Below the pieces are notes generated by a model. The model had not been told where the DNA came from, ran no database searches, and worked only from the letters and a program-made list of their open reading frames with translations. The translations under genes and the position numbers were made by a program. A DNA stretch of 61,363 nucleotides, filler included, from Kipferlia bialata (taxonomy: Eukaryota), in NCBI GenBank assembly GCA_003568945.1. It is 4 parts of 4 records of this genome, joined end to end, with 100 filler letters (N's around TTAATTAATTAA, not from the genome) between each part and the next. Parts side by side here need not be neighbours in the genome. Positions count along the whole stretch, not along the records: positions 44,663 to 56,956 come from BDIP01000361.1; 3 more parts are not named here. One strand, given 5' to 3'. Of the stretch, positions 22,234 through 61,363 are shown piece by piece. Each line of letters opens with the position of its first letter. The stretch's first letter is position 1.

Positions 22234-22333
22234 NNNNNNNNNNNNNNNNNNNNNNNNNNNNNNNNNNNNNNNNNNNNTTAATTAATTAANNNNNNNNNNN
22301 NNNNNNNNNNNNNNNNNNNNNNNNNNNNNNNNN
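22234..22333. other. Artificial contig spacer
   Basis: N run, TTAATTAATTAA at 22278-22289 (stops in all six frames), N run. Confidence 0.97.
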
Positions 22334-31600: not shown

Positions 31601-32771
31601 TTCTGGCTGCTGTGCACCTGGGGGTAAGACAAGTGATACATATACATGCATGTTTATGTACATAGACCCACCTCCTGTCCGAATGTTGCCTCAGTCAGAC
31701 ACCCATACAGCCTGGAGAAGAACACGAGTCTGGGCGAGGAGGGGGGGTGGGGCCGGAGGGAGGGGGCACTGCAGAGCAAGGTGGGTGTGTTGGTACTGAC
31801 CCCCAGGTGTGGCTGCATGTCAAAGACCAAGAGGTAGTCTGGATACACACTGCACACAAGGTGTCTGCCGTCAGGAGCCCACTCCAGCTGCGTGGTCATG
31901 TGAGGGGGGTTGGAGGCGGGGGGAGGGCCAACGTCTGAGGGTGAGAGGTATAGCCATGGAGGAAGAAGAATGTGGGAGGGGGGGGGGGGGTCGCCCACAG
32001 GTTCTGCCTGATGGAACACAGAACATATACGTCTCCTCTCACCTCTGAATGAGCACAGCACGTGCAGGAGCAGGCCTGTCTGGCTGTCCCACACCTTGAC
32101 CACCCCCTCATCACACCCAGTGGCCAGGTACCTAAGGGTAAGAGAGAGTAGACTGATACTGATACTGATACTGATACTGATCACACCCAGTGGCCAGGTA
32201 CCTGGAGGTGAGGGAGGGGCACACTATACAGGGGTTGTATAGTACTATATGAACATACTCACATGCCGTCTGGGCTGAATGAGCTGGCAAAGACCGCCGA
32301 TCTGTGCCCCTTGAGCATGGCCAGGGGGACATGCCCCGAGGGGGAGGACGTACACACAGCCAGGGCCTGCGACACATCGGGGGAAAAGGTGAGCTCTGCG
32401 GCACACAGGATGCGGCTGGTGTGGGGGAGGGGGGACGGCATCCCCAGGCGCCTCCACAATACCCCCGACTGCAGACACCGGCTGGCATGCCTCTGTGTCT
32501 CCATCTGCTCTATCTGCCCCAACCGATATGCCTCCAGGGCAGCTGCCAGCTGTGCCACTGACCACTGTGTGGGGGTGTCTCGGGATGCCCTGTCTGACAC
32601 CATCAAGGTGTCCCCAGACTCAGACCCACCCTCATCGCTCGCAGACAGGTCAATCAGGTGCCGCAGAGACCCGTCCTCATCAGACACAGCTCGAACCAGA
32701 CCACCCAGCCTCTCGAGACCAGCCGAGAGAGAGAGATGGGGCGAGACTGGGTCTCCCCCACCTGGGCCCAT
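25652..32771 (-). CDS. BRWD/PHIP-like WD40-repeat and bromodomain protein, multi-exon
   Basis: N-terminal LKGHRSAVFASSFSPDG/RYLATGCDEGVVKVWDSQTGLLLHVL is a WD40 repeat like BRWD1/PHIP. PWTPVVGERV resembles YVPQMGDEV. C-terminal YSPVSTLARVPNYWEVVPLAADVSSVIVKLLAGQYY is bromodomain-like. Confidence 0.75.
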
Positions 32772-33035: not shown

Positions 33036-35955
33036 ATGGGCGATGCCCATGAGTCAGAGGATGCGCATGTACCGTCTGGTCCCCATCAGAAGAGACTGAA
33101 GGGGCAGAAGGGGCAGAAGGGGCAGAAGGGTAGGGGGTGGAGGGGGCACACACCGAAGCAGAGAAGGTACCCTTGGTTGACATGTCATACATCCTGTTAC
33201 ATAACCCAGTGCATATGTCAAGACTACATGCCGTCATGGATACAAGCACCACGGTTAGTTAATACGCACACAAGTGGAATCCCCCCTCCCCCCCGACTCC
33301 AGTACTCACCCTTCCGCAAGTGTCTCCTTTAGGCCTCTGGTCCGTGGTTCCACAGCGCATTTCACACCCTCTCCTCCCCGGGTTTACACCCTGAAGAGTT
33401 ACCAGAAGGAATTGGTTGCCAAGGTACGAGGTGTATATACAGTCATCCCACAGTATTACTGCTTGAGTGACCGATCCACAATGTGATCAGTGGTGTCTGT
33501 AGGGTCTTCTTTCTCTTACTCTTGTCATAACTATATTATACCAGACTCTACATCCCTTCCCACCACAGTACATCCTATGACTCTATGTATCTCTCCTTAT
33601 TCTCTCTCTTGCCCTGATTCTCCTCCCTTCTTCTGTGTTGCTGACCCTGTCTCCCACACCTAGGCCTCATGGCACTCTCTCCATAGACCCTCTGTCATGT
33701 ATATATACATCTATACTGTACACTCACCCCAGGCCATGTCCCACGAGGGTGCCTCCCTGGTGTCTCTGCCCACAGGCACCGGCAAGACATTTGTGGCAGC
33801 GGAGTGGATACACAGACGCATGGAGAGGGTGTACCAACAGTGTGACACCCAGACTGACATACCCTCTAGACCCACACCCTCTAGGGTGGCATGGTTCCTG
33901 GTGCCCACAGAGGCACTCGCACAGCAGCAGGTGGGGGTGTTACAGAGGAAAACATGAATATTGAATGCATAGTGTACAACACTTTCCCCTCCCCCACCCC
34001 AGGCTAGTGCCCTCCGAGACTACTACCTGTGCACCGGTGGGTACAGTGTGTGCCACCTACAGCACATGGGGGATGGGCCCCACCTGGAGTCTGTTCTGGC
34101 TGCACATGATGTGGTTGTGTGCACAGCTGGTACCCTCTGCAACATACTCAGTCTGCCCCGGTACAGACAGGTGTGCGTGTCCCTACCCCAGTGTATAGGG
34201 GTTGTGTTTGACGAGGTGCATCAGCTGAGGGGCCAGAGTGATATGGCCCTCATAGCTGAGGCCCTGGCAGCAGAGGCCTCCCCCTCCCCTGTCCTGGGTC
34301 TGTCTGCCACCCCCGCTGTATCATTCTCAGCTGATGCCACGAGGGTGTCCATACAGACACTCACACAGTCATTAAGGGCTAGGGTGCTGGTATGTGAGGA
34401 GGGGGAGAGCGCTGAGGAGCTGGCCTCTGTTTCTCAGAGTGTCTCCATCACCAGAGTATATCCATCGTGTCCTCTCATGCCTTATGAACATGTGCATATG
34501 AGAGAGGGCCTACCTGCGCTGCAGTATCTGAGTACCCTACCCCCTCTGATACCTGAGTCTGACACTGGTACCCTGGTGTCAGTCGTACGGGCTCTAAGGG
34601 ACTTAAGGTGATTGTTCCCTTCTGTATGTATAGAGTACTGATCAGTCTTGACACTGTACCGTATGGGCGTTACGTTCTATCGTCACCCCAGGTCTGCCGT
34701 GACCTCTCTGTTTCCCCAAATATGCATGTCTATTATGCAGCACAGTGTAAGCAGGGTGTGTATTGGGACTACCAATGGAACTCAGAGTACAGACACAGAG
34801 ACAGGGAGAGAGGTCGGGTCCAGTGTTGTGGCCGCCTCGTCACTATTGGGAGAGGGGCAACTGCTGTACTTCTGTGAGACCCAGGTGGAGGCATTGCTGG
34901 CCAGCTGCTGCTTCAATGCTCTAGGTGAGATATGAAAGAGCAGCCCCAATGTGTATATCGTGATAATGATGGATTTCGTCCACAAGTGATAGAACTACTT
35001 CATCCACCCTCACGCTCCAGGCATAACCTCCTCCTATATAGTTGGTAAGGCTCCCCGCAGGTCCTTCACTGCCCTGTCCTCTGCACTTGGCCTACCCCCT
35101 CAGTCCACGGCATCTGTGTTAGACAGACTGCAGAGTGGGGTATTGAGGGTGCTGTGCAGCACACCGGTGGGCAGGGAGGGCATCGATGTACAGTCACTCA
35201 CCAGGGTGGTGTTGCCATGCCAGGTGGGTCATCTGATGGATATACTGGTGGTGTATGTATAATATTATATATACTGTATATGTATATACCCACCCCAGGT
35301 GCAGCACCCCGAGCACTGGCAGCAGGCCATTGGTAGGGCTAGGCAGAGGAATAGCCAGGTGTATGTGATGGTCAATAGGGACACGGACAACGTGTCCCTT
35401 GCGGTGCAGTCTCTGACAGACATGTCACAGCACATACTGTCAATTGGTAGACAGGGCGAGCTCGGTCATGACAGGGACAACACCAATCCTAAGTCATGTG
35501 GCAGCCCTAACTCTGATCCTGCTGTCCGTATTGGCACCAAAGTTGTTGAGCTGAACCCCCGCACTGTATCGCAGTGTGTCAATGAGATGGTGGGCAAGGC
35601 TCCGGGTCTATTCCCCGGTGTCACCAGGTCCAAGGACTGTGTGGGACATGCAGAGCAGTCATCCACCCAGCCACCCCTGTGGAGAGTCACTGCATGCATA
35701 TGTGGGTGTGAGGGTGAGGGTGTGGCTCCCAGGAAGGCTGCTGCCTCTAACCATGCCCTGGTAGATGCACTGGTCAATGCCCTAGATGCTGGATGCATAC
35801 CAAGGGAGGTGGCACACTTGGATATGCCGCAGGGACACACCGAGGAAGGGGAACAGGAGAGTGCTGCTGAGGCAGGAGGTCCTTCTTCTCCAGATGCATT
35901 TGGTGATGGAAGGTTTGACTTGAATGACTTGTTAACACATCTTCCATTTCCTTGA
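33036..35955 (+). CDS. Dicer/RIG-I-family DExH helicase with C-terminal dsRNA-binding domain, no RNase III
   Basis: Q-motif LKSYQKEL, motif I LPTGTGKT, Ia FLVPTEALAQQQ, II DEVH, III SAT, V STPVGREGIDVQ, VI QAIGRAR. C-terminal PPLWRVTACICGCEGEGVAPRKAAASNHALVDAL fits the dsRBD consensus. Confidence 0.85.
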
Positions 35956-36185: not shown

Positions 36186-39100
36186 ATGATATGCGGCGTG
36201 ATAGTGACTCGAGCCGGTGTGAAGCCTCGGTCCATCGTGCTTGAGGTTGATGCCGCAAAGGGCACCATCACAGCTGAGCTGGTGTCCAACAGACTGAGGC
36301 AGACCACCGCTGTGCCTATCCCAGCTGTCTCCATACCCACAGATGTGTTGGGGTCCCCAGGTGTCCATCTACTGCATGTCAACGCCGACCCCGTGACTCT
36401 GTGCATGCTAAGTAGTGAGGTACCCAAGGGCCTGGTCTCAGAGGTGGCCTCTCTCAAGTGCAGCGTGTCCTGTGCGTGCTTTATACTACTACTGAGGTCC
36501 CTGTCCATCCAGAACATCCCTGCCATCGACAATGTGGCTCTGATCTCCCCTGCCTCCCTGCTGTTGTTATTGGGGTCTCTGTCTGGGACAGGTCCCATGG
36601 CCACTGAGGCACCCACCACACACAGGGGCAGGATGCACAACGCCACGCTGCTGCTAGACACCCTGCAGGGCATACTGGGCCCAGAGGTCTCGCTGAAGCA
36701 CATCGATACCCAGGTGAGGGTCACTTCATATATATGTCCTGTAGAGTATACTGCTATATGATCTGCAGTTCCGAGGTGGGGGGGGGGGGGAGTTACACGT
36801 AGTATGACGGTCACTCCCTCCCCTCTCTCCAAGAGTGACACTCCAATATTCTCTCTTCTCCCCATACCTCATCTTCTCTCTGTCTCACCCCCCAGGCCCT
36901 GTGTTCCCGTCATCCCTTTGCCATACTGTGTGCATTCGACATAGTGTACTCTCTGTTCCATGGACGGTTCCCAGACCTGCCCCAGCTACCAGAGTACAGG
37001 TGTGGCCGTGTGGATACTCTTTACTCATGAGTGTGTGATAGTTATATACCCCCTATACTCAATTACATACTCCAGGTATGTATTTACATTATATTTACAC
37101 GTCAGTGTATGATATGCCCCTATATATGAAGTCTCACCCCAGTGCCGCTGAGTTCACGTACATAGCCAAGTCTCAGCTGGCACCATCAGGAGAGGGGGAG
37201 AGAGGGGAGAGGAGGGAGAGGAGAGCACGTACACCCCGCAGGGGAGACAAAGGGCGTAGGGATACCACCCATACCCCTCGGTCACCGAGGGCGGGTAGGG
37301 AGACACGGCGGCGAACCCTGACCCCCCGCACCACTGACAGTCAGAGTGTGAGGCAGAGGCACAGCACCAGAGTCAGACATGGGGGGCATGGGAGGCATGG
37401 GAGGCATGGGAGAGAGAGTCTGGAGAGGGTGGCCAGGCGGTCCAGGTCTGTGTCTCTGCCTAGGGCAGGGTCGAGGGGCAGGGGTGGCAGAAGGGGGGGT
37501 AGGGCGTACAGGGGTGTACGTGATAGGTCCCAGTCTGCCTCTGTCCACAGGCCTAGCATGGGTAGGGGGAGGGGTAGGGAGTCGCCCTCCCTGCCCCGGG
37601 GTGCCAGACGGTCCCAGTCCCTCAGACCCCACTCAGCCAGGGTCAGTGGGTCGAGGGAGAGAGGGAGGGGGGCAGTGCGTGGCCGGAGGAGTGTCTCCCA
37701 GGGCAGGGAGTCTCTATCCCTGCGGCGTAGGAGGCCCCTCTCTCACTCAGCCAGAGGGGAGGGGGAGAGGTTCTCTGGCAGGAGTGTGTCTCTATCCAAC
37801 CCGATGAGGAGGGGAGAGAGGAGCAAGAGCAGGGGGAGGGGTAGACGGGGTAAGCCTCGCAGGCGTGTCCGGCGTACTCTGCATATGCCTGAGGGTGAGG
37901 GTCTGATGGATGCGCACCATGCTGTGACAGGGCAGAGGAGGGGGGGAGACATGCCGTCTCTGCCTGTCCTGAGGGATGTACTAGTAAGGGGGAGCAGGGG
38001 GGAGAGAGAGAGAGAGAGGAGGGACAAGGTGAGCATGAGTGTGGAGAGTGCTGCTGGGCTAGGGGGTCAGACGGTGGATGCACCAGCCAGTGATGCTGAG
38101 GGGGGGCACTCCCAGTCGCCTGAGGCACAGGACCTGTTCTCAGCTCATCCCTTACCAGCAGAGGCATCCATCAGGTAGGGGTGGATTGGGTATAAGAGTA
38201 TTGTGATACTCTCATCGTGTCAGTACTCATATGCCGAGACCCTTACTGCAGCATTGCAGGTATCAGTGTCATCTGTCAGTATCCAACACTCTCTGTATTG
38301 TCAGTATGTGTGAGTCTTATGTAAAGTATCATACGCATATGTACATGTACGTGTTCAGACCCCAGGGCCCTGTGGGGTGAGACCACCACCCAGGTCAGAA
38401 GGCAGGGGGAGAGGGAGAGAGAGAGAGAGAGAGAGCGGTCGGTGTCCCTAGCCAGGTCCAGGTCACCCTCCCAGCCACTCACACACGCAGAGAAGGTTCG
38501 ACATCTACATACATACTCACACATACATGTTCATTTGTTCATTCATATACCTTATGCTACCTCTCCCCTCTGACCCCCCAGGTCCAGCGAGCCAAGGACA
38601 GACGCATGCAACAGGACGTGGCCAGGTACAGGAAGAGTCTGCTGCTGGCCAGACAGAGTGCGGCTGAGCACCTGTACACATCACTCCTGAGGGAGGGGCT
38701 CAAGGTACAGAGTATATATATGTATGTATATATATATATACTGAGGGAGGGGCTCAAGGTATCGTCTATTGTTATATGTATATACCCTGAGGGAGGGGCA
38801 CAAGATGTGTTGCATGTTGTAACATAATGGTAGAATAGGTTGGAATATGTTTAGGATATGTGTCATAAATTTCTGCGGGTGAGGGGGCTCCAGGTGTTTT
38901 GGATGGAATGTTGATGCCAGTCCCACTCATCTCTCACACCCTCAGGTTGAGCGGCAGAACCTTGTGGACGAGGCCCACTGGTACAAGGATGAGTATGAGG
39001 AGAGGGAGAGAGAGACCCGGGTCAAGAAGGAGGCAGAGACCAAGAGAGAGAGCGACATCCTCAACATGCTACAGGAGACGGTGGAACAGGCCAGGTGGGT

Positions 39101-42238: not shown

Positions 42239-43796
42239 ATGAGTGCCAGTCAGCAGCAGGCGGCATTCTCGCTGAAGGCCCCCCCTGCTGGGGAGGTACC
42301 TGAAGGAGAGGAAGGGGCAGATGCCGAGCAGGCCAAGATGGACAAGCTGAGGAAGAGGCTGGAGATGACAGGGGAGCCCGAGGAGGGAGGTCCCAAGCGG
42401 AGGGGACCCAAGCAGGTGTGGGGTTGGATGCAGTGGGGTGTTACTAGTGCCAATACCTATAGTGCTCATACTCTATAATGTTAACCATCCCATACATATA
42501 CACCCACCCCCAGGTGGCAGAGGAGGAGAGGATGGTGCTCAAGGCCAGAGACTTCGAGATTGACTTTGACCAGCACATCGGTATGTATGTATATATATAT
42601 AGTTGTCGGTATTTGTTTCACTTTGTTACACAGTCATCTCTTGTGTACCATGTGTACACCACGTTCCATCATCATTGCATATATAGAGATGTATTTGTAC
42701 TTCGATTTCGCTGTGAATGTGTACGTCTCTCTCTCTCTCTCTCTCTCTCTCCCCCCCCCCAAAAAAAAAAACCCGAAGCATATTGTATATATTATCAGCA
42801 TCTCTCCTTCTGTGTGCATATCTATCCCAAACACCCCCATTCACCCCAGGCCGTGCCGAGGCCCTGTCCCTGGCATCCAGTCAGCAGCACAGCGGAGGAT
42901 TCAGGTGGGTGTCTATGTGTATGTGCCTTTGTGAGTATACATACACACATTGTCATCTCAGTGTTTGTATACTACTACGTATTCAGTGTGTTAGCCCTTC
43001 TGTCCATCCCTCCCATATCTCCCCCGTTGTCGGGTGTGACTGTCATATATACATATCACATCTCTCTATACACCCCTCTCACCCCCAGGTGCAAGGTGTG
43101 CAGGCTGACCTTCAAGGACAGTGCATCATACCTGGACCACATCAACTCGGACGAGCGTACGTGGATAAGTCCAAGTATATATATATATACCCAAGACTCT
43201 ACCCGTAGATGCCTCTCTTATCGTTCTCTTATTGCCTCTATGGATACATACATGTGTATAGTCCTCACCCCAGACCAGGGTGCTCTTGGTTTCCAGACCA
43301 CGGTGGAGAGAGTGTCTGCGGAGAAGGTATGTATTTGTGTGTGTATCTATATACAATGTATGACACATATGCTGTTTATTGTGTGTGCAGTGCTGATATA
43401 TGCTGACCTCAGGTCATATCCCGTATGTAGAGATCACTTACATGACATATGTATTCTATTACACATATCAATTATACAGTATCCAACCCCCCAGGTCATA
43501 GCCCGTGTCTATGATATACCCTATCATTACATACGTATACTAGTATTCATTGTCTTTGTATGCTGACCCCTTAGGTCATTGCCCGTATCAAGTACCACGC
43601 CAACCGGAAGAGGAAGGGCAAGACACTCGAGAGGAAGCTGAAGCAGATCAGGTGGGTGGATAGTGTATATATATGTATATCTATACATATAGATGTATAT
43701 ATATGTATGCTCAAGCAGATCAGGTGGGTGGATGTATGGATATATATACAGGTATATATATACATATATACAGATAGGTGTGTATATATATATACT

Positions 43797-43832
<36 letters not shown>

Positions 43833-44561
43833 ATATGTCCATATATACAGGTAGATGTATATATATGTATGCTCAAGCAGATCAGGTGGGTGTATATATA
43901 TATATATATACTGGAATATATATGTATATATATATATTTTATTATTCTCGATATATGTGTATGTATGCTCAAGCAGATCAGGTGGGTGAAGGCTTGTATG
44001 TGTGTATCCACTCCCCTAATAAGTGTATATATATGTATGTATATATGTTTCAGCATACTACCACAGTTCTCTTTTGCACAGCCCCTCACCCCCAGGGCCG
44101 ACGAGGAGGCCACCGTTATGAAGGCCACCTACTCGCACGAGAGAGAGAGAGAGAAGAGGCGGGACATGATCAAGTACCACGAGGCCAAGCTGAGGAAGAG
44201 AGAGGAGGACGAGGCGGCGGCCCTGGCCATCGCCAGCAGACCCGCCCCCGTTCCCCCCCAGAGGCCCCAGACCTTGCCCCCGATGGTCCAGCCGATGATG
44301 CCTGGCCTGGTGGATGAGACTGTGCCCATGGTGCAGCCGATGATGCCGCAGGACGTGTATGCCCCTCAGCCCCTGATGCCCATGGCCCAGCCCACCCCAG
44401 AGGACATAGAGAGGGAGATGGTCGGGATGGCACAGCCACACGTGCAGGCACAGCCCCTGATGCCTACTGGGCCGGGGGTGCCCATGGGTGGGGTGCCAGT
44501 GCAGCCGTACCCTGTGGGGGAGGGGTACCCCCAGGGACCACAGCCACCCCAGAGGATGTAG
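42239..44561 (+). CDS. ZMAT2: Zinc finger matrin-type 2 / Snu23 spliceosomal protein with Pro/Gln/Met-rich tail
   Basis: Spliced [15 protein letters not shown]...[25 protein letters not shown]...[18 protein letters not shown] matches the ZMAT2/Snu23 signature. Confidence 0.85.
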
Positions 44562-44562
44562 A

Positions 44563-44662
44563 NNNNNNNNNNNNNNNNNNNNNNNNNNNNNNNNNNNNNN
44601 NNNNNNTTAATTAATTAANNNNNNNNNNNNNNNNNNNNNNNNNNNNNNNNNNNNNNNNNNNN
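44563..44662. other. Artificial contig spacer
   Basis: TTAATTAATTAA at 44607-44618 within an N run. Confidence 0.97.
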
Positions 44663-44921
44663 CAAAAACACCCCCCCTCCCCCCCCCCCCCCCCCCCCCC
44701 CTTGTTATCACGTCTCTGTACTATTCCACAATAATTCGAAAGCTAATCTCAAAGCTATATGTGCTCATACCATTCAGTATCCACCTTCTGCCCCCCCCCC
44801 CACCCCCTTCGTCAGATACCCGACTGTAGGCCCTTGCTTGAGTCTCTCTCTCTCTGTCTCACTATATCTCGATTGTATATAACTGATCCAGGACGACCCT
44901 GCCTGTACGGTTGGGTCTCTA

Positions 44922-45241
44922 ATGAGTGACTCAGAGACATCTGAGGTATGTATGTATCTGTATTAACATATGGATATGTAGGCTGACACATGGCCCTCCT
45001 ACTTCTCTCTCTCTTTCCCTCTCTACGTATCCATCACTATATATATGTATATATAATCAATTCTGTATACTTATACCAGGACACCTCAGAGGATGACACC
45101 TGACTTTCCCACTTCTCTCTATGTGTGTCCATATCTATAGATCTCTCTCTCTATACATACTAACTCTAGGATACCTCTGAGGACGACTCCTGGTCCCCCC
45201 ACAACGCTGTCATTGTGACATTCGACGATGACGGTACGTAG

Positions 45242-45276
<35 letters not shown>

Positions 45277-48200
45277 ATCTGTCTCTCTCTCTGCCTCTCT
45301 GACAATGAAGGTGTTGTTGCAGACAAGGAGTGGTTCACACTCGACATAGGGATACAGGTACAGATATATATTTCTATATATATGTCTTTGTATTTTTCAA
45401 TTGTATATAGAGGCTGATATCGTGTGGTTCACTTTCTACAGTATGATCATACTCACCTCAGAGGAGTGACATGGAGCGTATTGTTCACAGAAAATTCCAG
45501 TTCACGTTCACTATCATCAATGCACTATGTCTATATTACTATATTCATTCTTATATGTGTGATCTTTCGTTACTCCCCAGAGGAGTGAGCACATCGATAC
45601 GTATTTTGTATTTTGTATTATATACTATATATTATATATAGATACGTATATACATTTGCTTTCATATCGGTTATTGTATGCATATATACACAGAATAGTC
45701 ATACTAAATCCAGAGATGCACTATATATACATACATACATACATATATATATGCTATATATACATACATATACACACTCACCCCAGAGGAGTGACATGGA
45801 GCACATCTATCTAGTATGCACTATATTTATATATACTATAGATATATATATATGCTATGTATTGATGTATATATACATCCTTATTCCAGAGGAGTGACAT
45901 GGAGCACACTGTCAAGGGCTACTCCATCGATGAGACCCACGTGATGCTGATGTGCATATCATGGTGGGTGGTGATATAGTAGACCCATACACTGACTCTC
46001 TATATAGATACCTATATGTATATACCTTATGTGATGCTGATGTGCATATCATGGTGGGTGGATGTATGTCTAGGGAGTGTATGCATGTAAAGTGACTCCA
46101 CTTCACTTTGTTCATATTTTATACTAGTTTCTTGATTCTATTAATGAATTATTATATCATTAATTCACTTCTTTGTCCCCTCTCTGACCAACCGCTACAT
46201 TATTATGTTCCCCCGCTCTGTCTCTCTCTCTCTCTCTATTCCTACTCACCCCTAGGCACAACTACTCTCTGACCAACCACTACATGTACACGCTGTGCCT
46301 GGACTCACTCGAGTGCCACAGGTATATATATACCAATAATCGATATATACACACACAGTTACTACTGAGAATGATATGTATTACATACAGTGGATCATCT
46401 AGCATTGTGCCTGGACACCCTGGGGTGTCACAGGTATACAAGTATATATATGTGTATGTATGTATATACTACTATATGTATGTACATACATGTCTAACCC
46501 ATAGACACACTCAAGTAGTCCATGCCGAGGGTGTATCTCAGCCCCAGCAGGAGAGACTGGGGAAGAAGGAGGGAGAGGGGGAGGGGGAGGGGTACCAGAG
46601 TGTCAACATGTGGAAGGGACAGCCCACACAGTTCAGGTATATAGAGTATATATACATACATAGATATATACGTATATATATATGGACATGTATGTGATAC
46701 TGATACTGATACATGTGGAAGGGGCAGCCCACACAGTTCAGGTATTGTTGTTTCATATGTATATACTACTATATGGACATGTATACTCTCTCCACTGTTC
46801 TTTCCCTCCTTCTCACCCCCTCAGGCTTGGTGACCGACTCATCCTGCTGGGCTAGACATACATATAGTACAGCACACACATATATATGTATATATGTGTG
46901 TATGAGTATGTATGTATGAGTATACTGAGATACTTACCCAGGCTTGGCGACAGGCTCATCCTGCTTGGCAACAGACAGCCCAGGTTCTCCGTCAAGGGAG
47001 AGGTACGGAACAGTAAGACGGTTTAGATATCAGTATAGGAATTGATATAGTGGATATTGTGACCACTATACCCCCTTTGTGGCACCACTCACCTGAAACC
47101 TTCCCTCTCATATCTCTCTCTATTCATTGATGTGTGTCTGTATATACTCTCGCTCACTCTATCTCTGCCTGATAGCTCACTTTCCCATTATCCTATTCTC
47201 TCTCTCTCTCTTATGCTAGAGCACCGTGAACTGGATATAGTAGCACCCTCTTCTAACAACAGCTCTGCGTGATGGCCCACTATCCCCCTATCCCAATCTA
47301 TCAACTCACTGAACATGTATACAACATGTATACTTGACCTATATCTGATATATCCAATATCAGCTCTGCATGATGGCCCACTGTCCCTCAGACGACACGT
47401 GGGAGAGGCTCACACCCCCACCTAAGGTAGGTGCACAGTGTATGATACATATGAGATATTTTTGAAAGTGTACAGTATTTATGCATTGATCCTATGATAG
47501 AGTCTGTGCAATGAGATTCGGTATATACACACACACTCTCTCTCTTTCCGAATATATATCGATGAAAGTACATGACCCTGACCCCCAGGCCATTATGGAG
47601 TCTATCAATGGCTATGGGTACCACTCCTCCTCACACTTGAGGTATCGGCATTGTCTCATATGTATGTATATCACATGAGGTATATGTCACTAAGGATCCT
47701 CAGAGTCTATTATGTGTGTTATATACACTAAGAGTGTGTACTGCTTGGCTATGGGTACCACTCGTCCTCACACCTCAGGTATCGGCATCGTCTTCTCACA
47801 GTATACATGTAGTATGATATCAAATTCAGGTAAGATCTCTCACTTCAGTGTGGGTGTGGTCGGTGACACCGCCTACTTCATCAAGAAGGAGAGTGACATG
47901 GGATACAGGTATGGTTTCAATACTTAACCTAAAAATGTATTGACACTATTGTATACACTAAATACAAGTAGTAATATATACTACATTCAGATGCACATTG
48001 AATTCTTAGTGAATATTTGATTCTCTTACTGTAGATACTCCTTTGATGAGGGATGGTCTGAGCAGTCTCTGTCTGGGGTCGGTCTCAAGCTGGAGAGGAG
48101 GAGTGGGTTCTTTAGACGAAATGGGGAGGTTAGTGTGGGTCCTTGTTAGTATGTAGCATCATTATGTGGGTATGTATTATCTTACATGTGGGTCAGTATT

Positions 48201-49052
48201 ATCCCAGAATGGGGACCCACCTGCCTAGACCCCCTGCTGACTCCCAGTATGCCCTCAATGTCATGGTGGGATTGCCACAGCACCTACTGCTACAGGTATG
48301 GGGACTGTCTACACTATATAGAGTACATCAAGGAACCCATCTCTATTTGCATTGTCGCCCTTATTTCGTTGTTTCTGTTTGGTATAGTCAGTCAGTATTC
48401 TGTTGTTGTCTCACCGTCAGAAGGCCGATTGGATCATCGCAGACCCCACCGACTACTACTCATGCCCATGGGAACAGCACTTGCACACATGGGACACGGT
48501 GTCTGAGGTATATACATATATATATATACATATGGTTAATAGTATCGGAGATTTGTAATATATGTGTGCTAATACCCTATTAATCCGTAATATCTCCATA
48601 GCACTTGTACACATGGGACACGGTGTCTGAGGCATTATTCTGCAATATAGTATCCCACACCTCTCTCCCTCTCACTAATGCCTTAGGCTTGGGCCGAGAT
48701 ACCCTTTTTGAAGGAGGACTATATGTGTCTCTGAGTGTGTATATGACTACATCTCTTCCTAATTAAGATGAATCACTGAGTGAACCGTGCTCCTCTTTGT
48801 ATAATGTACATAGACATTTATTGATTGCCAAACGGATTTCCTGATTGATTATAGGAATGGACCGAGATCCCCTTTGTCGGAGCGGACGGTGTCACCAAGG
48901 CCGAGTGTCCCCGTATGTCCATGGCTGTACCTCTGCAGCCCAACGGAGGTGCCGACTGTAAGTGGATAGTGTACAGGAATAACAGCTATGATCAGGGGAA
49001 TACCCAGAGTTCACCAGCTCTGTCTGTTATGGAGTTCTGGGAGAAGGAATAG
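44922..49052 (+). CDS. Kelch/beta-propeller-like protein encoded by many short exons
   Basis: ATG 44922 (MSDSETSE/DTSEDDSW...). Exons with MYTLCLDSLECH, VGVVGDTAYFI, YSFDEGWS, HLHTWDTVSE. Last exon 48857-49052 EWTEIPFVG...MEFWEKE*. Confidence 0.65.
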
Positions 49053-49267
49053 ACACACAGACTGTAGGTGTCAATGCGCTTAGACTGGTCACTGTATTTG
49101 TCATTAACTGTGTAGTATAATCTGTATGCTTTACAGTAATAGTAGTACTACTAACAACATGCCTACACACAACTGATACCCTCAAGAATAGAGATGACTG
49201 CAGTTGGTGCACACACCCTAGTAGACTGGCTCAACTCTGTAGTCCATCATCACACTGCCAACCACAC

Positions 49268-50257
49268 ATGTCTGATACAGTCCCAGTCCCCCTGTGGCAG
49301 GAAGAGCAGTGTGACTTTCCTCTCTCTGTCTTCCCCTTCAGCTGCTCTGGGGCCATCAAGACAGGGCACAACGAGGTGCTAGTGGAGTCATATGATGAGG
49401 ATAGACACCTAGTACTTGCCCTGGTGCGTCTACTCTCAGGTGGCACAGTTGAGAAGGAGCTTATTCAGAAGCCAGACCCTCAATTCAACACAGCCAAGGT
49501 GTATGGCGTGTGTCACTGGGGGGAGGTCTACATGTACACTCGTGATACGGACAGCACCCTCTATATACTTGATCTTGCTACACACAGTTGGCGCTCAGTT
49601 GATGCCCCATTGCACCTCGGACAGAGTGACAGGGTACAGAGGATACGGCAAGTGTCTCTTTGGCTTGGCCAGGTATGCCTCTTGAGTGACGGAGCAGATG
49701 TCGTGGTGGTTGGCATCCAGTGTGACCGTAGCACTAGTGACGGCTATATATACACAGTAGGCATGTGGTACTATAACCCTGAGAGAGGAGCAATGGTCTG
49801 TGCAGGAGGAGACACACACACCTATGAGGATAGGCCACCTTCACCCGTATTGTATTTACTAGATGGAGTCCGGTACCTTAGAGCGGGCACAGATGTGTAC
49901 AGCTACTGCGACATTGGGCAGTGGACACTAGTACCTGAGTCTGAGTTAACAAGCGGCAATGGATTAGCTGGTTTGTACCCAGTACGCGATTCATGGGGTA
50001 AGTCTATAGTTCTGGCTCCCCTAGAGAGACGCTTCTCAAGGGGCATATTCTGTGCAGCCTTTGATACAGTGTCATCTCAATGGAGTCTGTTGGGACATAC
50101 ACATGAGGATAGATACGTCCTTTTCACCCCCGCTAATGCACTCTGGTGTGGGGATAGGGATGGGTCTGTGATGCGGTATCTGGACGGTGGCCTAGTATAC
50201 CCCCACGAGTCACGTCTGTGGGCCACAGATCCAGGCAACAGCCGACTCTTGGAGTAG
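49268..50257 (+). CDS. Intronless kelch-like beta-propeller protein, 329 aa
   Basis: Single ORF with motifs GEVYMY...LYILDLATHSW, YYNPERG, FDTVSSQW. Confidence 0.6.
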   Translation: MSDTVPVPLWQEEQCDFPLSVFPFSCSGAIKTGHNEVLVESYDEDRHLVLALVRLLSGGTVEKELIQKPDPQFNTAKVYGVCHWGEVYMYTRDTDSTLYILDLATHSWRSVDAPLHLGQSDRVQRIRQVSLWLGQVCLLSDGADVVVVGIQCDRSTSDGYIYTVGMWYYNPERGAMVCAGGDTHTYEDRPPSPVLYLLDGVRYLRAGTDVYSYCDIGQWTLVPESELTSGNGLAGLYPVRDSWGKSIVLAPLERRFSRGIFCAAFDTVSSQWSLLGHTHEDRYVLFTPANALWCGDRDGSVMRYLDGGLVYPHESRLWATDPGNSRLLE

Positions 50258-50739: not shown

Positions 50740-50927
50740 GGAGTCGGATATATGACCAAGGGTGTACGTGCCTGTCCCTAACAGTACCCCTGCAGCATAA
50801 GGGAGGTGCTGAGGCAGCTGACTGTAAGTGCATAGTGTACAGGAATAGCAGCTGTGGGCAGCAATGCACTCAAGGCTCGCCAGCGCTATCTTTCATGGAG
50901 TTCTGGTATTCAGAAGCCACAGAATAG
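50740..50927 (+). pseudogene. Paralogous fragment of the last exon of the 44922-49052 gene
   Basis: Protein-level similarity to exon 48857-49052; no upstream exons seen. Confidence 0.5.
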
Positions 50928-52363: not shown

Positions 52364-52903
52364 ACTATACCACCGTGTCTCCGTATGGACATGATGCACC
52401 CGTAAGGACACTACCCCCTCATTTGAGAGAGCTGTGTATGTAGTGTATTGCATTGGGACTGCCAATTTGGCAGACATCCAAGGAAGTAAATGACTAGTAT
52501 TCAGTCAATGGGTCCACATGCGATTTTTCAATATATCTATTAGCAGACACTGGTGTATATCAGTGTGCAAGTCGCCCCTGTTCTGCCCTAGACCCTAAAT
52601 ATTGCATGTCGTATCAGTAACAGAAATGTTGTCTGTTCCTCTCCACTGTCAAATGAAACCTATACATAGCGACTAACGTAGCAGCTGCAGATAGTATTAG
52701 GGCCCAGTGACTGATAACTATCTGTGTTTTGTCATGGCACGTCTGAAATATTTGCAGAGCATTTGACTGAGAGGAGGTCTCTCTCAAATAGGGGTTTAGC
52801 TGTGATCTCTGTGACAAGTCTACAGCTGAATACTACACGCATTCTCTTCGTGATCATCACATCAGGCCTCATACCTCTGTTTACCTTGCTAGTATAGAGT
52901 ACG

Positions 52904-54340
52904 ATGGAGGTAGCAGTGGCTGCTCTGAATGCAGACATTGGTGGAGGGCCCAGTGAAGTGGAGGTGAGTGGTGTGTACGAAGAGGACTCAATATAGGTCT
53001 GATACGTCATGTATTGTTCGTCACCCCCAGTCACCGTGTTGTCTCTGTTACGACCCCGACTCTGACCCTCTGACTATGGGGTGTGGCCATGTGTTCTGTC
53101 TGGGGTGTATGACAGCATTGCTGGAGGGGAGGTACGGGGTCTGACTCAGATAGTATACATACACACAAAGTCATAACACAAATCTCCACATTGGATTTGA
53201 TAGGTCCTGCCATGTGTCATATACACAGGTGACCAGAGTCATCCTTCACAATTGTTGAATCAACATAGGCTCTCACATTGTATTATACAATGATTGTATA
53301 TCTATCTTATATACACAGGTGGTATGGCCGGTCGGGTGCCAGGATCAGCTTTGGCTTCATGGGGTGTCCCATGTGCCAGAGTGATATATCAGGTCACCCT
53401 GTCTTGGATACACTGATGGCACCCCTTGTCACACTCAGAGAGAAGGTGCACAGGATGGCAACAATGAGACAGGTGTGTATACGTATATCCTGTATATATT
53501 GAGTAATGCATATGTTAACGAGATAGACCTGAGTACATCATATTACTCAATATTTTGAGACAAAGAAGAGAATATGTCTCCTTGTCACACTATTACACGG
53601 TGTAAATAGTGTATACATTAGTGCAACATACACTCTATAGGCAATACGTCACTGTACGGTTACCCTAACCCGTCAGCAGATGGAGCATGGCAGTGGGTCA
53701 GTGTCCGATGCCATCAGGGAGTATGCATACTACCAGTGCCACAGGTCGGTTGCAGTAGAGTAGGGTAGTGTTATTGTAGTATCTCTTTGAGCATCCTCCC
53801 GGAGGACCCCCGCGATCCACAAGCATTATATGTAGTAACTGTAGGTGTGCTGAGCCCTACTATGGAGGTGCAGTGGAGTGTGCCGCAGGGAGTGAGACAG
53901 AGTACAACCAGGATGACCTCACATGCCCTAGGTATACATACTGAATCTAGTAGATCAATAGTGTCTATATTCTCAGTGTATTACTACCTACTGGCCGCAG
54001 AGTCATCACCTAACACAGGTGCACCCGTCTTCAGTCCCCCACCTCCCTCCCTGACACCTGTTCCTCCCACGGCACAGACTACATCCAGTGGAAGTGCAGG
54101 TACTGCTGCAGTATGGCAGTGTTCTTCTGTTTCGGCACCACCCACTTCTGCGTCGAGTGCCACAACAACTACAGCAAGTGTCAGGCAGCAGAGAAAGCGG
54201 GTACCCTACCCCCATGCCCTGCTGGCCCTGTACTAAATGGCCTAGCTGGAGAGTGTCCATTGGGATGTGCCCACCCCCCCACAGGCAGTGAGTTCTGCAT
54301 GGGGTGTGCAGAATGCAGACTGAAGGAGGAGGACTACTGA
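52904..54340 (+). CDS. Small MYCBP2/Highwire/RPM-1-type RING-Cys-relay E3 ligase domain protein
   Basis: Spliced CCLCY...GCGHVFCLGC...ARISFGFMGCPMC (RING), then YAYYQCHRCAEPYYGGAVEC...HGTDYIQWKCRYCCSMAVFFCFGTTHFCVECH...HPPTGSEFCMGC, closely matching the PHR-family C-terminus. Confidence 0.9.
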
Positions 54341-54573
54341 GTATAGCACTATTTTTCATACACAATAAATGATAGTCCATAATGGACACGAATACGTTCA
54401 ACACTTGGAGAATGACACATATACGGAACGGGATGTACCGAGTGCAGACTCAGGGAGGAGGACTACTGAATAGTAATAGAAACATGATACACTAACCACT
54501 GGATAAGTGACCTATACGGATCATTCTATTACATATCTACATTTCATTTCATCAACACACACTCCTAAGGGGC

Positions 54574-55994: not shown

Positions 55995-56956
55995 ATGATC
56001 CACACTCACCGCAGCCAGGGCCTCTGCCAGAGGCTTAGGGAATGGTGTCAGGGCATGGCCAGCAGCCAGTGCCTCAGTGAGTGAGAGGACTGCCTGTGCC
56101 CCCTCCTCAACAAGTGAGGCATGGAGGGGGGTGTCGATGCTGCCACACAGGATGCCATCCACCCTGGGGTGAGAATGAGAATGACCACATACAATATTAA
56201 GGAATACTAAGGTAAAATATAGCAGGGTAGGTATAGCCATACCTGTCGTAGACCTCCAGCAACACTCCCCCTGCCACACTACAATACTATACTTACGCTG
56301 AAGACAGCAAACATGTACTAGGGAATGTGTGTGCAGCCATACCTGTCGTAGACCTCCAGTAGCACTCCCCCTGCCACACACACAATGGAGGGACAGAGGG
56401 GGGCAGAGTCTACGGACACAGATGCCCTATCTGCTGTCTGGGCCAGTGAGACCAGCTCGGTAACCCACCCAGCGGCATGGAGGGGGGCAAAGTGGCCTGG
56501 TATATAAGAGAGAGTGACGACACACATATGTATACAACACATTGCCACAAAATAGAGATCTACATAAATATACACGTATGTATATATATCATATAAACTA
56601 CTCTACATACACACACATACCGGGGGCAGGTGCCTCTGGGAATGTGCTGAATGGCAGTGTGAGTCTAGACACTGATAGGGCAGAGGAGAGAGAGAGGTGC
56701 ACGGGGATGCGGCTGGCAGGGATAGACATGACACGGGAGATGAACTCGCCTGGGGGTTAGGGATGCTGTCAGAGTGGCCTACTGACCACCGCTGTCTCTC
56801 CCTCACTTTCTCTATGTATATATTCCACAGCTGTATAGACATACTTCTCCATTACCTGAGTCTGCTGCAAGTGCTGTGAGGGTGGCCACCACGGCTGTCC
56901 TGAGTCTGGCATCCACATGGGGGGCAGACAGGACAAGCCTATGTATTAGACATGAG
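54574..56956 (-). CDS. Hypothetical multi-exon, Leu/Ala-rich helical protein; 5' end cut by contig edge
   Basis: GC-rich exons flanked by ctcacccccag acceptors and gt donors; last exon within ORF 54574-55230. Confidence 0.5.
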
Positions 56957-57056
56957 NNNNNNNNNNNNNNNNNNNNNNNNNNNNNNNNNNNNNNNNNNNN
57001 TTAATTAATTAANNNNNNNNNNNNNNNNNNNNNNNNNNNNNNNNNNNNNNNNNNNN
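56957..57056. other. Artificial contig spacer
   Basis: TTAATTAATTAA at 57001-57012 within an N run. Confidence 0.97.
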
Positions 57057-57123: not shown

Positions 57124-60100
57124 GATAGTCAGGGACAGGGCAGTGGCACTCTATGTAGACATGCACGGACACTCTAGGTATTGTACAGATCAGTGTATGT
57201 ATTATGTTCAATACCAATGAAGTGGAGTGTTATCGCCACAGCAGACGTGTTCCTCTCTCCCTTACTCCAGGCGCAAGAACGTCTTCATGTATGGGTGTGA
57301 CAACAAGAGAGACCCGGCACTGCTGCACTACGAGAGGGTTCTTCCCAGGTACATTTAGTAAGTATATGTAGTATATATAGAGGATTGAATATTCACATGT
57401 TGATATCTCATCTCGCTGTCTCTCTGTCTCTCTCTCATTCTCTTTCTCTCTGCACCCTTACCCTAAGGATCCTCGATGACTTTGGCCCCTCCTTCAACTA
57501 CGAGGATTGCACGTTCAAGGTATATACGACTAGTCATCAATAATATATGTATATATGTATGTATGTATGTATATTAACTACCTAGTATATATGCTATACT
57601 CTATAGATACATCCTTCAACTACGAGGACTGTACATTCAAGATATGGGTATGTGTGTATATACTAAGTGTATACTATACTCTATATTCTTTCCTGCATAC
57701 TAGTTCTAAGACATATATCTAATACATATATCTAATACATATTAATGCAGCGTAACAAGGAGGGCACTGCCAGGCTGGTTGTCAACACTATATATTATTC
57801 CTCATATATGTCACATATATATAGTATTCTATATTAGATGCTAGTGTAATACGTATGCTCATACCAGATGCAGCGTAGCAAGGAAGGCACCGCCAGACTG
57901 GTTGTGAGTATAGGATATACACTCTTCATATATTCTTATGTATATGATATACTATCCATACTAACCCTCTAGATGCAGAGGTCTAAGGAGGGCACCGCCA
58001 GACTGGTTGTTAGTGTGTATATATATATATACATATCCAACATGAGTTGGATCCAATATACTCTGTACTGTATACTATGTATCATCTTCTTATACCAGAT
58101 GCAGCGTAGCAAGGAGGGCACCGCCAGACTGGTTGTGAGTATATACATATACATACTCTCCTCTCCCTATTTATTAATGTATGTATATAAATATATACCC
58201 ATACCAGATGCAGCACTCTAAGGAAGGCACCGCCAGACTGGTTGTCAGTATATGAGTATATACCATACTATCCAATACCATATGTATTATGTATATATAT
58301 ACTAACTGTAGATGCAGCGTAGCAAGGAGGGTACAGCCAGACTGGTTGTGAGGAAGGAGTACAACGTGGTCAACTCCTTCACCATGGAGGCATCGTTCTG
58401 TGGGACAAATCAGGGTATGTATACCCTCAATGTATTCTATTTGTGCTGCGTATGTGTGTGTACTCCGTGTTGTGACTCTCAGGCAAGTACTGTGACATTC
58501 AGTTCAACGAGGCTGATACATGCATATCCCGATACAACGCATATAGAGACATACTTACTGTATATTATGAGCATAAGTGATTATATACTAACCCCCCAGG
58601 CAAGTACTGTGACGTCCAGTTCAACGAGGCTGTTATTTGTATATATACCTATATCAAATAGTATATACATATATATATATATATAAGAATACTTATACAT
58701 CTATGTACTTATCATCAGGCAAGTACTGTGACATCCAGTTCAACGAGGCTGATGTACATATACATTTAAATAGTTTTACTGTTATAGTAATATGTGTGAA
58801 TACATACTCTAACTCCTAGGCAAGTACTGTGACATCCAGTTCAACGAGGCTGCCCTGATGGAGATGGGGGCGGCATTAGGTATATATAGTGTATAACTAT
58901 AGTATAAATATATAGAATAGTATACAATAGTATGTGGATCATTATTTCTTAGATCTATTTGTATATATATTAGAGGCTGCCCTGATGGAGATGGGGGCGG
59001 CACTAGGTACAATATGTATTGTACAAAGAATAGTATATATAGGGAGAGAGAGATAGAGAGAGAGTGGCCCTGATGGAGATGTGGACGGCACTAGGTATAG
59101 GGATACAATCTTTCACATATTGTCAGAATATTCAATTCTCTCTCTCTCTCCCCCCCTGTACACCCTAATATACTAGGCAAGGCCATTCTGCACTCCTTTC
59201 CTACTCCGTCCTTCTCTCTCTCTCTCTCCCTCTCTACACCCTTTAATCAATCAGGCAAGGCCATCCTGCACTCCTTTGCCACTGACACCACCCCCGGTGA
59301 TGCTGCCACTGATCTATCACACCCTGGTGTGCCCCCTCTAAGTGAGGCTGGTCGAGAGGTATGTACTAGTGTATTGTATATATTAATATTATATAATGTA
59401 TGTAGCATATATATACACTGACCTCTCCCACCCTGGGGTACCACCCCTGTCTGAGGCTGGTAGAGAGGTATACATACTATGTATATAGTATAAGTATACT
59501 ATAGTATAGTATATATATAAGAATAGTATATATGTATATATATATACACTGACCTGTCGCACCCTGGGGTGCCTCCATTGAGTGAGGCTGGGAGAGAGGT
59601 ATGCATATATACTAGTGTATATATATATTTTTACATTTATAAGGTGCCACCATTGAGGGAGGCTGGTAGAGCGGTATTGACTCTCTTTCTCTCTATCTCT
59701 CTCTCTCTCTCTACACTCTTTACCCCAGGTTCTCAACACCATCCGGACTGAGCTCCAGCGGACAGCAATGAGGAAGGAGGAGGAGGTGTGTATAGATTTA
59801 TATATGTGTGTATTCTAAAGTGGGTATTGTTTATACTGTGTATATACTATTATGTATGTACTACTATACATATGGAATATATAACTCCAGCGGACAGCTA
59901 TGAGGAAGGAGGAGGAGGTGGGGTGTATAGATTCATTAATATATGTTTGCTTCCTATAGTGTCTACCATACTCTTACTCTCTAGGTTGAGCCCATCGATG
60001 ACTCCGACTCAGAGTCTAGTATGTATATATATATCCTATATATATGCCAGGTTCCTATCTATATATCTATATATACATATATATACATATATATACATAT

Positions 60101-61363
60101 ATATATACATATATATACCTGTATATACCACTCATACTAGGTAGAGCCCATCGATGACTCCGACTCTGAGTCTGATGAAGAGCCAACAATCAGAGACCAG
60201 ATCAAGGTATATATACCCCAGAACGCTAAACGATAAACTTTCTATACTAAACGGCAGAGACCAGATCAAGGTAATAGGTATATATGCCCCTATATATACC
60301 ATGAAACGCTAAACGCTAAACGCTAAACGGCAGGGCAAGAAGGGCAATACCCCCCCACCTGATGCTGACACCCCTGCTGATGATGTCAACCCATACGAGG
60401 TGCTGGACAGTCTATCTTCCCTGCAGGTATGTACAAGGATGTATATATATATATATTCGTACTTTACAGTATATAAGTATATATATATACCCCTGCTGAT
60501 GATGTCAACCCCTATGAGGTGCTGGACAGCCTGTCCTCCTTGCAGGTATGTACATACACATATATATGTGTATATATGTATGCATTTGCTGGACTGTAGA
60601 ATCTACTGTAGTTGTATTGTTAGTGGCTACTTACTCCCTAGGTGGCCCTCAAGAGAGATTATATGTATAATAGTGAGTACTATAATGTATACTCTATATA
60701 TATGTAGTATAATAGTGCCTATTCTAACCCTAGGCCGCTCTCAAGAGAGACACGTCCAAGGACAAGTAATATTTTATGATATATACACACGTGTGATATA
60801 TTTAATGCTATTTCTGACTCTCTAGGCCGCCCTCAAGAGAGACACGTCCAAGGACAAGAAGATTGTATTCACAATAGTGTCTATTATATTATATACTGTG
60901 TATGTAGTATATTAGTGCCTATTCTGACACTCTAGGCCGCCCTCAAGAGAGACACCTCCAAGGACAAGAAGAAGAAGAAGAAGGCAAAGAAGGAGAAGGT
61001 ATCTATTGTACAATGTATTATACGTTTATAGTCACTTGTGTCACTGTATATTACATACGCATATTCTCTCTCTCTCTCTCTCTAGCCCCTTATTGTCAGG
61101 CTGCCAAGAAGAAGAAGAAGGTCAAGAAGAAGGAGGAAAAGGAGAAGGAGAAGGAAATGGAGGTATGGGATATATAAGTAATATGTATATATGTATATAT
61201 ATGTGTGTAGAGAGAGAGAGAGGGAGAGAGAGATAGAAGAAGGTGAAGAAGAAGGAGGAGAAGGAGAAAGAGAAAGAGAAGGAAATGGAGGTATGGGACA
61301 TATATGTTAGTATATATCTATAGAGAGAGGGGGGGGGGGGGGGGGAAGAGGAAGAAAAAGAAA
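57124..61363 (+). CDS. Cytosolic carboxypeptidase (M14D, CCP/AGBL/Nna1 family, tubulin deglutamylase type), partial; Lys/Glu-rich tail
   Basis: Spliced LYVDMHGHSRRKNVFMYGC...ERVLPRIL...FNYEDCTFKMQRSKEGTARLVV...NSFTMEASFCG...FNEAALMEMG shows the Zn-ligand HGH and catalytic FTxE motifs of CCPs. Confidence 0.92.
57610..61300 (+). repeat. Intronic tandem copies of exon edges in most introns of the CCP gene
   Basis: ATGCAG...GTTGT x6 (57745-58350); GCAAGTACTGTGAC..CAGTTCAACGAGGCTG x4 (58483-58852); GCCCTGATGGAGATG x3; GAGGCTGG.AGAG x4; GCCCTCAAGAGAGA x4 (60640-60965). Confidence 0.95.

Follow-up and report, generated by a model that had tools for sequence, protein, structure and literature searches.

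Exon-edge echoes in the introns of the Kipferlia bialata gene KIPB_002259 as possible stubs of diverged alleles

Introduction

Why do the introns of a protein-coding gene carry short copies of the edges of neighbouring exons, and from where might such copies have come? This question is raised by KIPB_002259, a Kipferlia bialata gene that we examined within a 61,363-nucleotide (nt) stretch of joined contigs, hereafter the window, and whose copied exon edges we refer to as echoes. All coordinates are positions in this window and all counts refer to the window, not to the whole genome. K. bialata is a free-living fornicate with about 125,000 GT-AG introns and an assembly built from short reads (PMC5874029; here and below, papers are cited from those parts of their text that were available). 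An earlier note on this DNA had listed echoes at almost every junction of the gene and had taken a silent-site bias, shared with a second gene, as a sign that the underlying process is not gene-specific; it put forward no mechanism. Untranslated sequence that looks as if it were under protein constraint is a puzzle in itself.

Results

An echo is a half-copy of an exon edge inside an intron, consisting either of an acceptor and the start of the next exon or of the end of the previous exon and a donor. Echoes are 16-57 nt long and represent one exon edge each; introns upstream of the copied exon carry its acceptor and start and introns downstream carry its end and donor, the sole exception in KIPB_002259 being an interior piece of exon 5 at 46180. 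When exons of this gene were searched against its introns, matches were found in 11 of 26 adjacent pairs versus 1 of 156 non-adjacent pairs (Fisher p=6e-10), and 13 of the 14 adjacent matches were located at the intron-facing edge of the exon, with none at the opposite edge. Echoes occur in 8 of the 13 introns and at 10 of the 26 splice sites, in addition to the interior piece, and "almost every junction" was therefore an overstatement. The pairs listed earlier were all found in place, although the list had missed 46180, 46406 and 47263. One exon start had been counted as present in four copies: those at 45462 and 45787 match the exon at 45890, while 45581 is a variant with one differing base in the shared 9-mer and a poorer match beyond it.

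We then asked what the mRNA makes of these copies. In one RNA contig (740 nt, depth 22), exons 7-13 are spliced at GT..AG and six introns are bridged with 0 differing letters, and the loose ends of the same contig carry on into exons 6 and 14, again with the exon version of the sequence. The cDNA comparison that the earlier note had proposed, run for exons 7-13, thus confirmed the GT..AG joints and showed the echoes to be skipped. The exon version is present in RNA for all 6 of 6 differing exon/echo pairs (one contig, one gene, one sample; exons 7-13 plus ends), and an echo and both of its spacers are removed as a single intron. RNA contigs lose rare isoforms, and the alignment covered KIPB_002259 alone, from the loose end in exon 6 to that in exon 14. 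The RNA run contains 0.14 of the sampled words, close to the 0.17 that exons by themselves would give. Because the RNA contig splices past them with the exon version in every one of these pairs, the echoes of KIPB_002259 are intronic and are not used by the mRNA that was checked. Two of the RNA joints leap an echo with an intact splice site (47263 and 47746). The skipped echo acceptor at 47263 scores 7.9, like real ones (47364 is used instead), and the ignored echo donor at 47746 scores 6.8 (47641 is used). This skipping hints at exon definition, or at nonsense-mediated decay clearing wrong products, in an organism with short introns.

The echoes are also present in DNA reads. In a public DNA run, which is a possible source of the assembly, 0.99 of 444 sampled 31-mers from 44900-49100 were recovered in another set of contigs from these reads. 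Since no exact repeat between copies in KIPB_002259 exceeds 31 nt, this coverage indicates that reads contain the unique junctions of echo and spacer. Direct alignment of the run to the stretch, with records filtered beforehand, yielded matches to microsatellites and no spanning piece, which speaks neither for nor against the arrangement.

Strikingly, echoes and exons differ preferentially at silent sites. For this comparison we included a second gene, KIPB_002289, a partial cytosolic carboxypeptidase-like gene. Over all rows, we counted 18 silent and 19 non-silent differences in KIPB_002259 and 77 and 10, respectively, in KIPB_002289. Without the interior piece, a repeat aligned out of register and two borderline hits, the counts were 16 and 11 (proportions of silent and non-silent differences, pS and pN, 0.31 and 0.05) and 71 and 9 (pS 0.41, pN 0.015). 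As a null we used an in-cis duplicate with a neutral echo and an exon changing silently, for which a silent share of about 0.33-0.37 is expected. Against this null, the filtered silent share is significant in both genes (KIPB_002259, 16/27, p=0.004; KIPB_002289, 71/80, p=1e-21); it is 18/37 (p=0.03) for all rows of KIPB_002259 and 50/61 (p=1e-13) when only the nearest echo per exon side is kept, which limits non-independence. The pN/pS ratios of about 0.17 in KIPB_002259, an orphan kelch-like gene, and about 0.04 in the conserved carboxypeptidase give the echoes the signature of purifying selection. Hence, the bias reported earlier does hold in KIPB_002259 but is not the same, being weaker there than in KIPB_002289 (16/11 versus 71/9, Fisher p=0.0015), as expected if it mirrors the constraint on each protein; nor does it extend to every example, since 2 of 8 differ mainly or only at non-silent sites.

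Two 17-codon echoes of KIPB_002289, with 10 and 11 silent changes, still encode exactly the same peptide as the exon; compared with one another, they show 8 silent codon differences and 0 non-silent ones. Along the five echoes of its exon 4, serine codons of the AGY and TCN types alternate, in all combinations with two flank types. No AT drift was seen among the silent changes (27 to AT, 36 to GC).

Outside their coding part, echoes and exons are unlike. The mean aligned identity of echo and exon flanks is 0.65-0.66, with a maximum of 0.83 among 33 echoes, versus 0.58-0.61 for non-cognate flanks; acceptor-side flanks are slightly more alike than unrelated ones (0.66 versus 0.58). Flanks are unlike even beside identical echoes, and no near-identical echo/exon flank occurs among the 33. 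An exception among echo-echo pairs is found at 43692-43988, where three units have as many as 39 nt in common, TA-rich spacer sequence among them, which suggests recent local expansion of an existing echo. Taken together, the silent excess, the alternation of serine types and the unlike flanks make it highly likely, as judged from the sequence, that each echo stems from a different working copy that evolved separately under selection on its protein.

Successive copies are 64-156 nt apart (median 109, a period of about 110 nt). Spacers measure 45-147 nt with a median of 76 (one of 302 nt encloses an uncounted echo); they are never short and resemble echo-free introns in size (median 66, n=19). 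Intron length is approximately 110 nt plus 105 nt per echo, a partly circular estimate. No repeated spacer was seen, either within 450 nt or by eye. The farthest echo is more decayed than the nearest in 7 families, less in 1 and tied in 3 (p=0.035), and distal echoes lose splice dinucleotides and acquire non-silent changes; since farther echoes tend to be more decayed, old stubs seem to have been pushed outward. Five exons have both 5' and 3' stubs, which overlap by at most 7 nt or leave gaps of up to 32 nt. This is consistent with a single break but is expected from the lengths alone, and we do not count it as support. Two further ideas were discarded: comparisons of ends did not support the spacer as a complete intron with both splice sites, and recursive splicing was rejected as most 5' echoes do not start with GT.

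Echoes are found in 7 genes on 3 contigs and on both strands, namely KIPB_002259, KIPB_002289 and five more, in agreement with the earlier view that the process is not gene-specific. In KIPB_002289, the exon-versus-intron search gave matches in 12 of 21 adjacent pairs versus 3 of 100 non-adjacent ones. One gene, rich in cysteine codons, has an echo of its stop-codon end 129 nt behind the gene end, the sole match at 6 stop codons tested; the anchor would accordingly be the border between coding and non-coding (conserved) sequence and not the splice site. The echo-forming process is patchy across genes: 15 of 23 complete introns of KIPB_002259 and KIPB_002289 bear echoes, whereas the long gene of the first contig had none in the 19 introns inspected by eye, and a pair search of the first two contigs returned no echo pair. 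Introns in echo genes are richer in TA (0.14 versus 0.08, p=4e-5), whereas AT content alone does not separate echo-bearing (0.58-0.70) from echo-free introns (0.52-0.73) within KIPB_002259 and KIPB_002289. At 60207-60333, the same 11-nt acceptor-like sequence and short 7-nt repeats precede both the echo and the next exon, the sole case of a seemingly doubled whole intron.

Table 1. Genes, exons and echoes in the window
Feature	Position	Strand	Basis and comparison
KIPB_002259, kelch-like, 14 exons, 13 introns	44922..49052	+	own model; RNA bridging for six introns
KIPB_002259, exons 1-5	44922-44945, 45170-45233, 45311-45357, 45890-45963, 46256-46321	+	own model
KIPB_002259, exons 6-10	46505-46636, 46942-47002, 47364-47426, 47589-47641, 47849-47908	+	own model
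KIPB_002259, exons 11-14	48035-48128, 48248-48295, 48421-48507, 48855-49052	+	own model
5' echo of exon 2, own AG	45080..45102	+	vs exon 45170: 3 silent, 1 non-silent
5' echo of exon 4, farthest copy	45462..45477	+	vs exon 45890, sequence match
5' echo of exon 4, degenerate middle copy	45581..45601	+	by eye; under detection threshold, uncounted
5' echo of exon 4, nearest copy	45787..45805	+	19/19 identical, flank 63% alike
3' echo of exon 4, GT kept	46031..46053	+	identical to 45941
Interior echo of exon 5, located upstream, no AG	46180..46200	+	sequence match
3' echo of exon 5, GT kept	46406..46433	+	3 silent, 2 non-silent
3' echo of exon 6, GT kept	46711..46741	+	vs 46606: 1 silent; RNA loose end has exon codon
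5' echo of exon 7, AG kept	46825..46852	+	vs 46942: 4 silent; RNA has exon version
5' echo of exon 8, AG kept, skipped in splicing	47263..47286	+	2 non-silent; RNA joint passes over
3' echo of exon 9, GT kept, skipped in splicing	47746..47778	+	vs 47609: 3 silent; RNA joint passes over
3' echo of exon 13, donor now GC	48600..48631	+	vs 48476: 1 change, non-silent His>Tyr; RNA has exon version
5' echo of exon 14, decayed/weak	48687..48707	+	vs 48855: 1 silent, 3 non-silent; RNA loose end runs into exon 14
KIPB_002289, partial cytosolic carboxypeptidase-like gene, model of 11 exons, 23 echoes	57124..61284 (gene 57124-61162)	+	own model, equal to the KIPB_002289 record; protein match
KIPB_002289, five 5' echoes of exon 4	57745-58248	+	sequence match
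KIPB_002289, three 3' echoes of exon 6	59416-59673	+	sequence match
Another gene, two 3' echoes of exon ending 38704	38741..38804	+	sequence match
Another gene, two 5' and three 3' echoes of exon 43575-43651	43413..43988	+	sequence match
3' echo of exon (copy 56335-56379)	56235..56279	-	differences silent in compared codons
5' echo of exon (copy 32110-32133)	32180..32203	-	identical
Stop-codon echo, last 13 codons incl. stop of cysteine-rich gene, no splice site	54431..54469	+	exon copy 54302-54340; 3 silent codons, 2 changed residues

KIPB_002259 lies on the contig at 44663-56956 and was identified by a protein search with its last exon, which gave a single, 100% identical match. Our model equals the public record except for two acceptor choices. 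For exon 12, an in-frame upstream acceptor (48197-48295) would give 17 extra codons; the RNA contig and the public model take 48247. The protein may be kelch-like, as the earlier note had it. ESM Atlas, the one source of this support, returned a feature score of 0.94 to DUF1668/Kelch clusters and template modelling (TM) scores of 0.5-0.6 to kelch propellers at a predicted local distance difference test (pLDDT) value of 0.57, whereas a Pfam search of the protein gave no match.

Behind the gene, an intron-poor reading frame (49150-50257) has a propeller-type look by eye, and a degenerate copy of the last exon of KIPB_002259 is visible about 1.9 kb downstream (50770-50910). The cysteine-rich gene bearing the stop-codon echo occupies 52900-54340, and its end presumably resembles the C-terminus of MYCBP2/Highwire. 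Elsewhere in the window, 1-20092 is taken up by a very long multi-exon gene whose introns are short and less TA-rich (median 66 nt, n=19; first 10 kb read) and have no echoes, 20607-22233 by an intronless, repetitive cysteine- and aspartate-rich reading frame that looks surface-protein-like by eye, and 33670-35955 by a helicase-like gene with Walker A and DEVH motifs by eye and introns without echoes. Runs of N are found at 20093-20606, 22234-22333, 44563-44662 and 56957-57056, the three with the TTAATTAATTAA linker being artificial contig joins.

Discussion

Echoes differ from exons as alleles do, at silent sites and in intron flanks. On these sequence comparisons, we consider them to be probably the stubs of other, once-functional alleles, left behind by offset recombination between strongly diverged homologues. 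The donor copies would then, on balance, be alleles or haplotypes of diverged strains with a silent divergence of about 0.3-0.4 and introns that are barely alignable. Fornicates are reported to be without non-homologous end joining (NHEJ) and Rad51A and to have two Dmc1 paralogues (PMC8516963), and Dmc1 stabilises mismatched base triplets (PMC6719624). The diverged homologues would match in short exons only and might be rejoined about one intron out of register. A break within an exon would leave a stub of 15-55 nt, too short for pairing; the broken end could pair via the next exon instead, with the unpaired tail, made up of the old intron and the stub, escaping clipping. Synthesis would copy the donor intron and exon, so that the old stub would be shoved into the intron while the donor exon takes over. 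Existing echoes might in turn act as decoys for unequal exchange with the exon, giving arrays with one common end point, and selection would spare only half-exons with one splice site. The repair step itself, with its retained tail and copied-in donor intron and exon, we regard as doubtful.

Several observations weigh against this origin. The bias in KIPB_002259 is modest, as 11 of 27 differences are non-silent, and the RNA evidence is narrow in breadth, coming from one contig of one gene in one sample. No second allele or strain was encountered: over the exons it covers, the RNA contig shows no alternative letter, a metagenome scan with the carboxypeptidase gave 4 loci among 587 candidate stretches, all 49% identical and none a Kipferlia strain, and protein matches outside Kipferlia are at most 66% identical, with no second strain among them. 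For alleles that still recombine, a silent divergence of 0.3-0.4 would be extreme, and the common end points within families require the added step of unequal exchange. The decay gradient is weak, and its scoring was off in frame for one family and in register for another, while two depend on borderline hits. Finally, neither a splice-site nor an intron-end signature marks the broken ends of echoes (p about 0.2), nor do these ends clearly resemble the far side of the cognate intron (p=0.06, 0.40), and the junctions thus give the repair step no direct backing.

Could echoes instead have arisen in cis, by tandem duplication of about 110 nt over the coding border through slippage or flap errors, with the silent bias added later by fast-mutating exons (for example through error-prone, mRNA-templated conversion) and selection on the exon? 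The narrow unit size of 64-156 nt and the TA-rich introns of echo genes (0.14 versus 0.08) speak for such a process, the units sharing up to 39 nt at 43692-43988 show that local expansion does occur, and hyperdiverse alleles would be unnecessary. However, its plain version is ruled out by the silent share, flanks are never near-identical (maximum 0.83), and differences between echoes are mainly silent and alternate instead of nesting with distance; overall, we find duplication in cis unlikely. Present-day selection would account for the silent bias if echoes were functional alternative half-exons, used under other conditions or by non-canonical splicing. A pN near zero in KIPB_002289, the many echoes that retain their own splice site with a normal score and the GT-like donor that follows four exon-4 echoes of that gene and one exon-8 echo agree with this. 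Against it, the RNA contig skips the echoes in 6 of 6 pairs, as do the public models of KIPB_002259 and KIPB_002289, distal copies show lost splice dinucleotides and additional non-silent changes, and one echo sits behind a stop codon. Broken ends are, moreover, no more splice-like than random intron positions, so canonical splicing would be unable to join a half-exon to the remainder of its exon, and we judge a function of this kind quite unlikely.

The donors might also have been paralogues or homeologues within one nucleus, dating back to a past polyploidy or hybridisation and by now either lost or absent from the assembly; the recombination step would be the same. Near-saturated silent change and switches between serine codon families fit long-separated copies. 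Yet the protein set, as distinct from the whole genome, holds one Kipferlia protein for each gene (cluster size 1) and no second copy or paralogue of KIPB_002259 or KIPB_002289, and up to five versions per exon edge would demand many copies, which makes paralogous donors very unlikely. An assembly or library artefact that strings together alleles of a mixed culture is suggested by the use of short reads (PMC5874029) and by the fact that the DNA run containing the stretch may itself be the source of the assembly. The presence of 0.99 of 444 31-mers in a separate contig set, with a longest exact repeat of 31 nt in KIPB_002259, argues against it, as does the single allele in RNA, and echoes that have decayed and lost their splice sites cannot represent live alleles; an artefact is thus highly improbable.

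How does an origin from allele stubs compare with known systems? Yeast genetics has described unequal exchange and gene conversion between diverged sequences with a non-homologous tail. The process proposed here would work like such exchange, with pairing confined to short homologous islands and duplication at the homology border; there, however, the events are experimental or rare, whereas in Kipferlia they would form a recurrent gene architecture in which one intron stacks as many as five or six allele stubs. Introner elements and the target-site duplications of transposons leave exon-derived direct repeats at intron borders. For echoes, no repeated element was seen between the copies within 450 nt or by eye; they are repeats of 16-57 nt with silent differences, and their spacers look unique. 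The minisatellite over a splice site in intron 7 of human F7 consists of near-identical 37-bp units of which the first donor alone is used (PMC1557585). It likewise starts in the exon and has silent downstream donor copies, but concerns one locus, whereas echoes occur in many genes and on donor and acceptor sides, are alike in their coding part only and differ silently in the exon frame. Generally, the hallmarks of in-cis duplication and minisatellites are missing, as the intron part of the unit is unlike and decay is tied to codon position. Intron gain by tandem duplication also involves duplicated coding sequence that ends within an intron (PMC2891723). There, duplication of an AG/GY site creates a new intron. 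In Kipferlia, an intron already in place grows longer, the broken end does not look like a splice site, with no excess of splice-like motifs that would indicate a duplicated AG/GY proto-splice site, and the copies were already different when they formed. Tandem exon duplication with mutually exclusive splicing (PMC8373072) shares adjacent exon-like copies and a purifying-selection signature with the echoes, yet duplicated exons are whole, have two splice sites and reach the mRNA, while echoes are half-exons, each with a single splice site, that splicing passes over. The echo pattern thus lacks a defining feature of each of these last three systems. Our literature search, with subscription papers, theses and supplements outside it, found no description of the echo pattern or of unequal exchange as a recurrent feature of gene structure, and the available parts of the Kipferlia genome paper (PMC5874029) and spliceosome paper (PMC6679479) contained no description of echoes.

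In practical terms, echoes can mislead gene prediction and read mapping. They also constitute thousands of natural contests between near-identical splice sites, in which the spliceosome skipped echo acceptors that score like real ones, in an organism for which no small nuclear RNA (snRNA) candidates were found according to the available text of PMC6679479.

Sex in free-living metamonads is an open question. If the echoes are indeed stubs of alleles, a single assembly would provide direct evidence of genetic exchange and of very high silent diversity in a free-living metamonad, and would show the effect of a Dmc1-only, NHEJ-less repair on gene structure. More tentatively, the introns of Kipferlia might be an ordered archive of past alleles, written by mismatch-tolerant, Dmc1-only repair between hyperdiverged strains that anchors in exons of 50-100 nt and routinely swaps an intron together with an exon. 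If so, one genome would reveal cryptic sex, a silent diversity near 0.3-0.4, the order in which alleles were replaced and a new route of intron growth.

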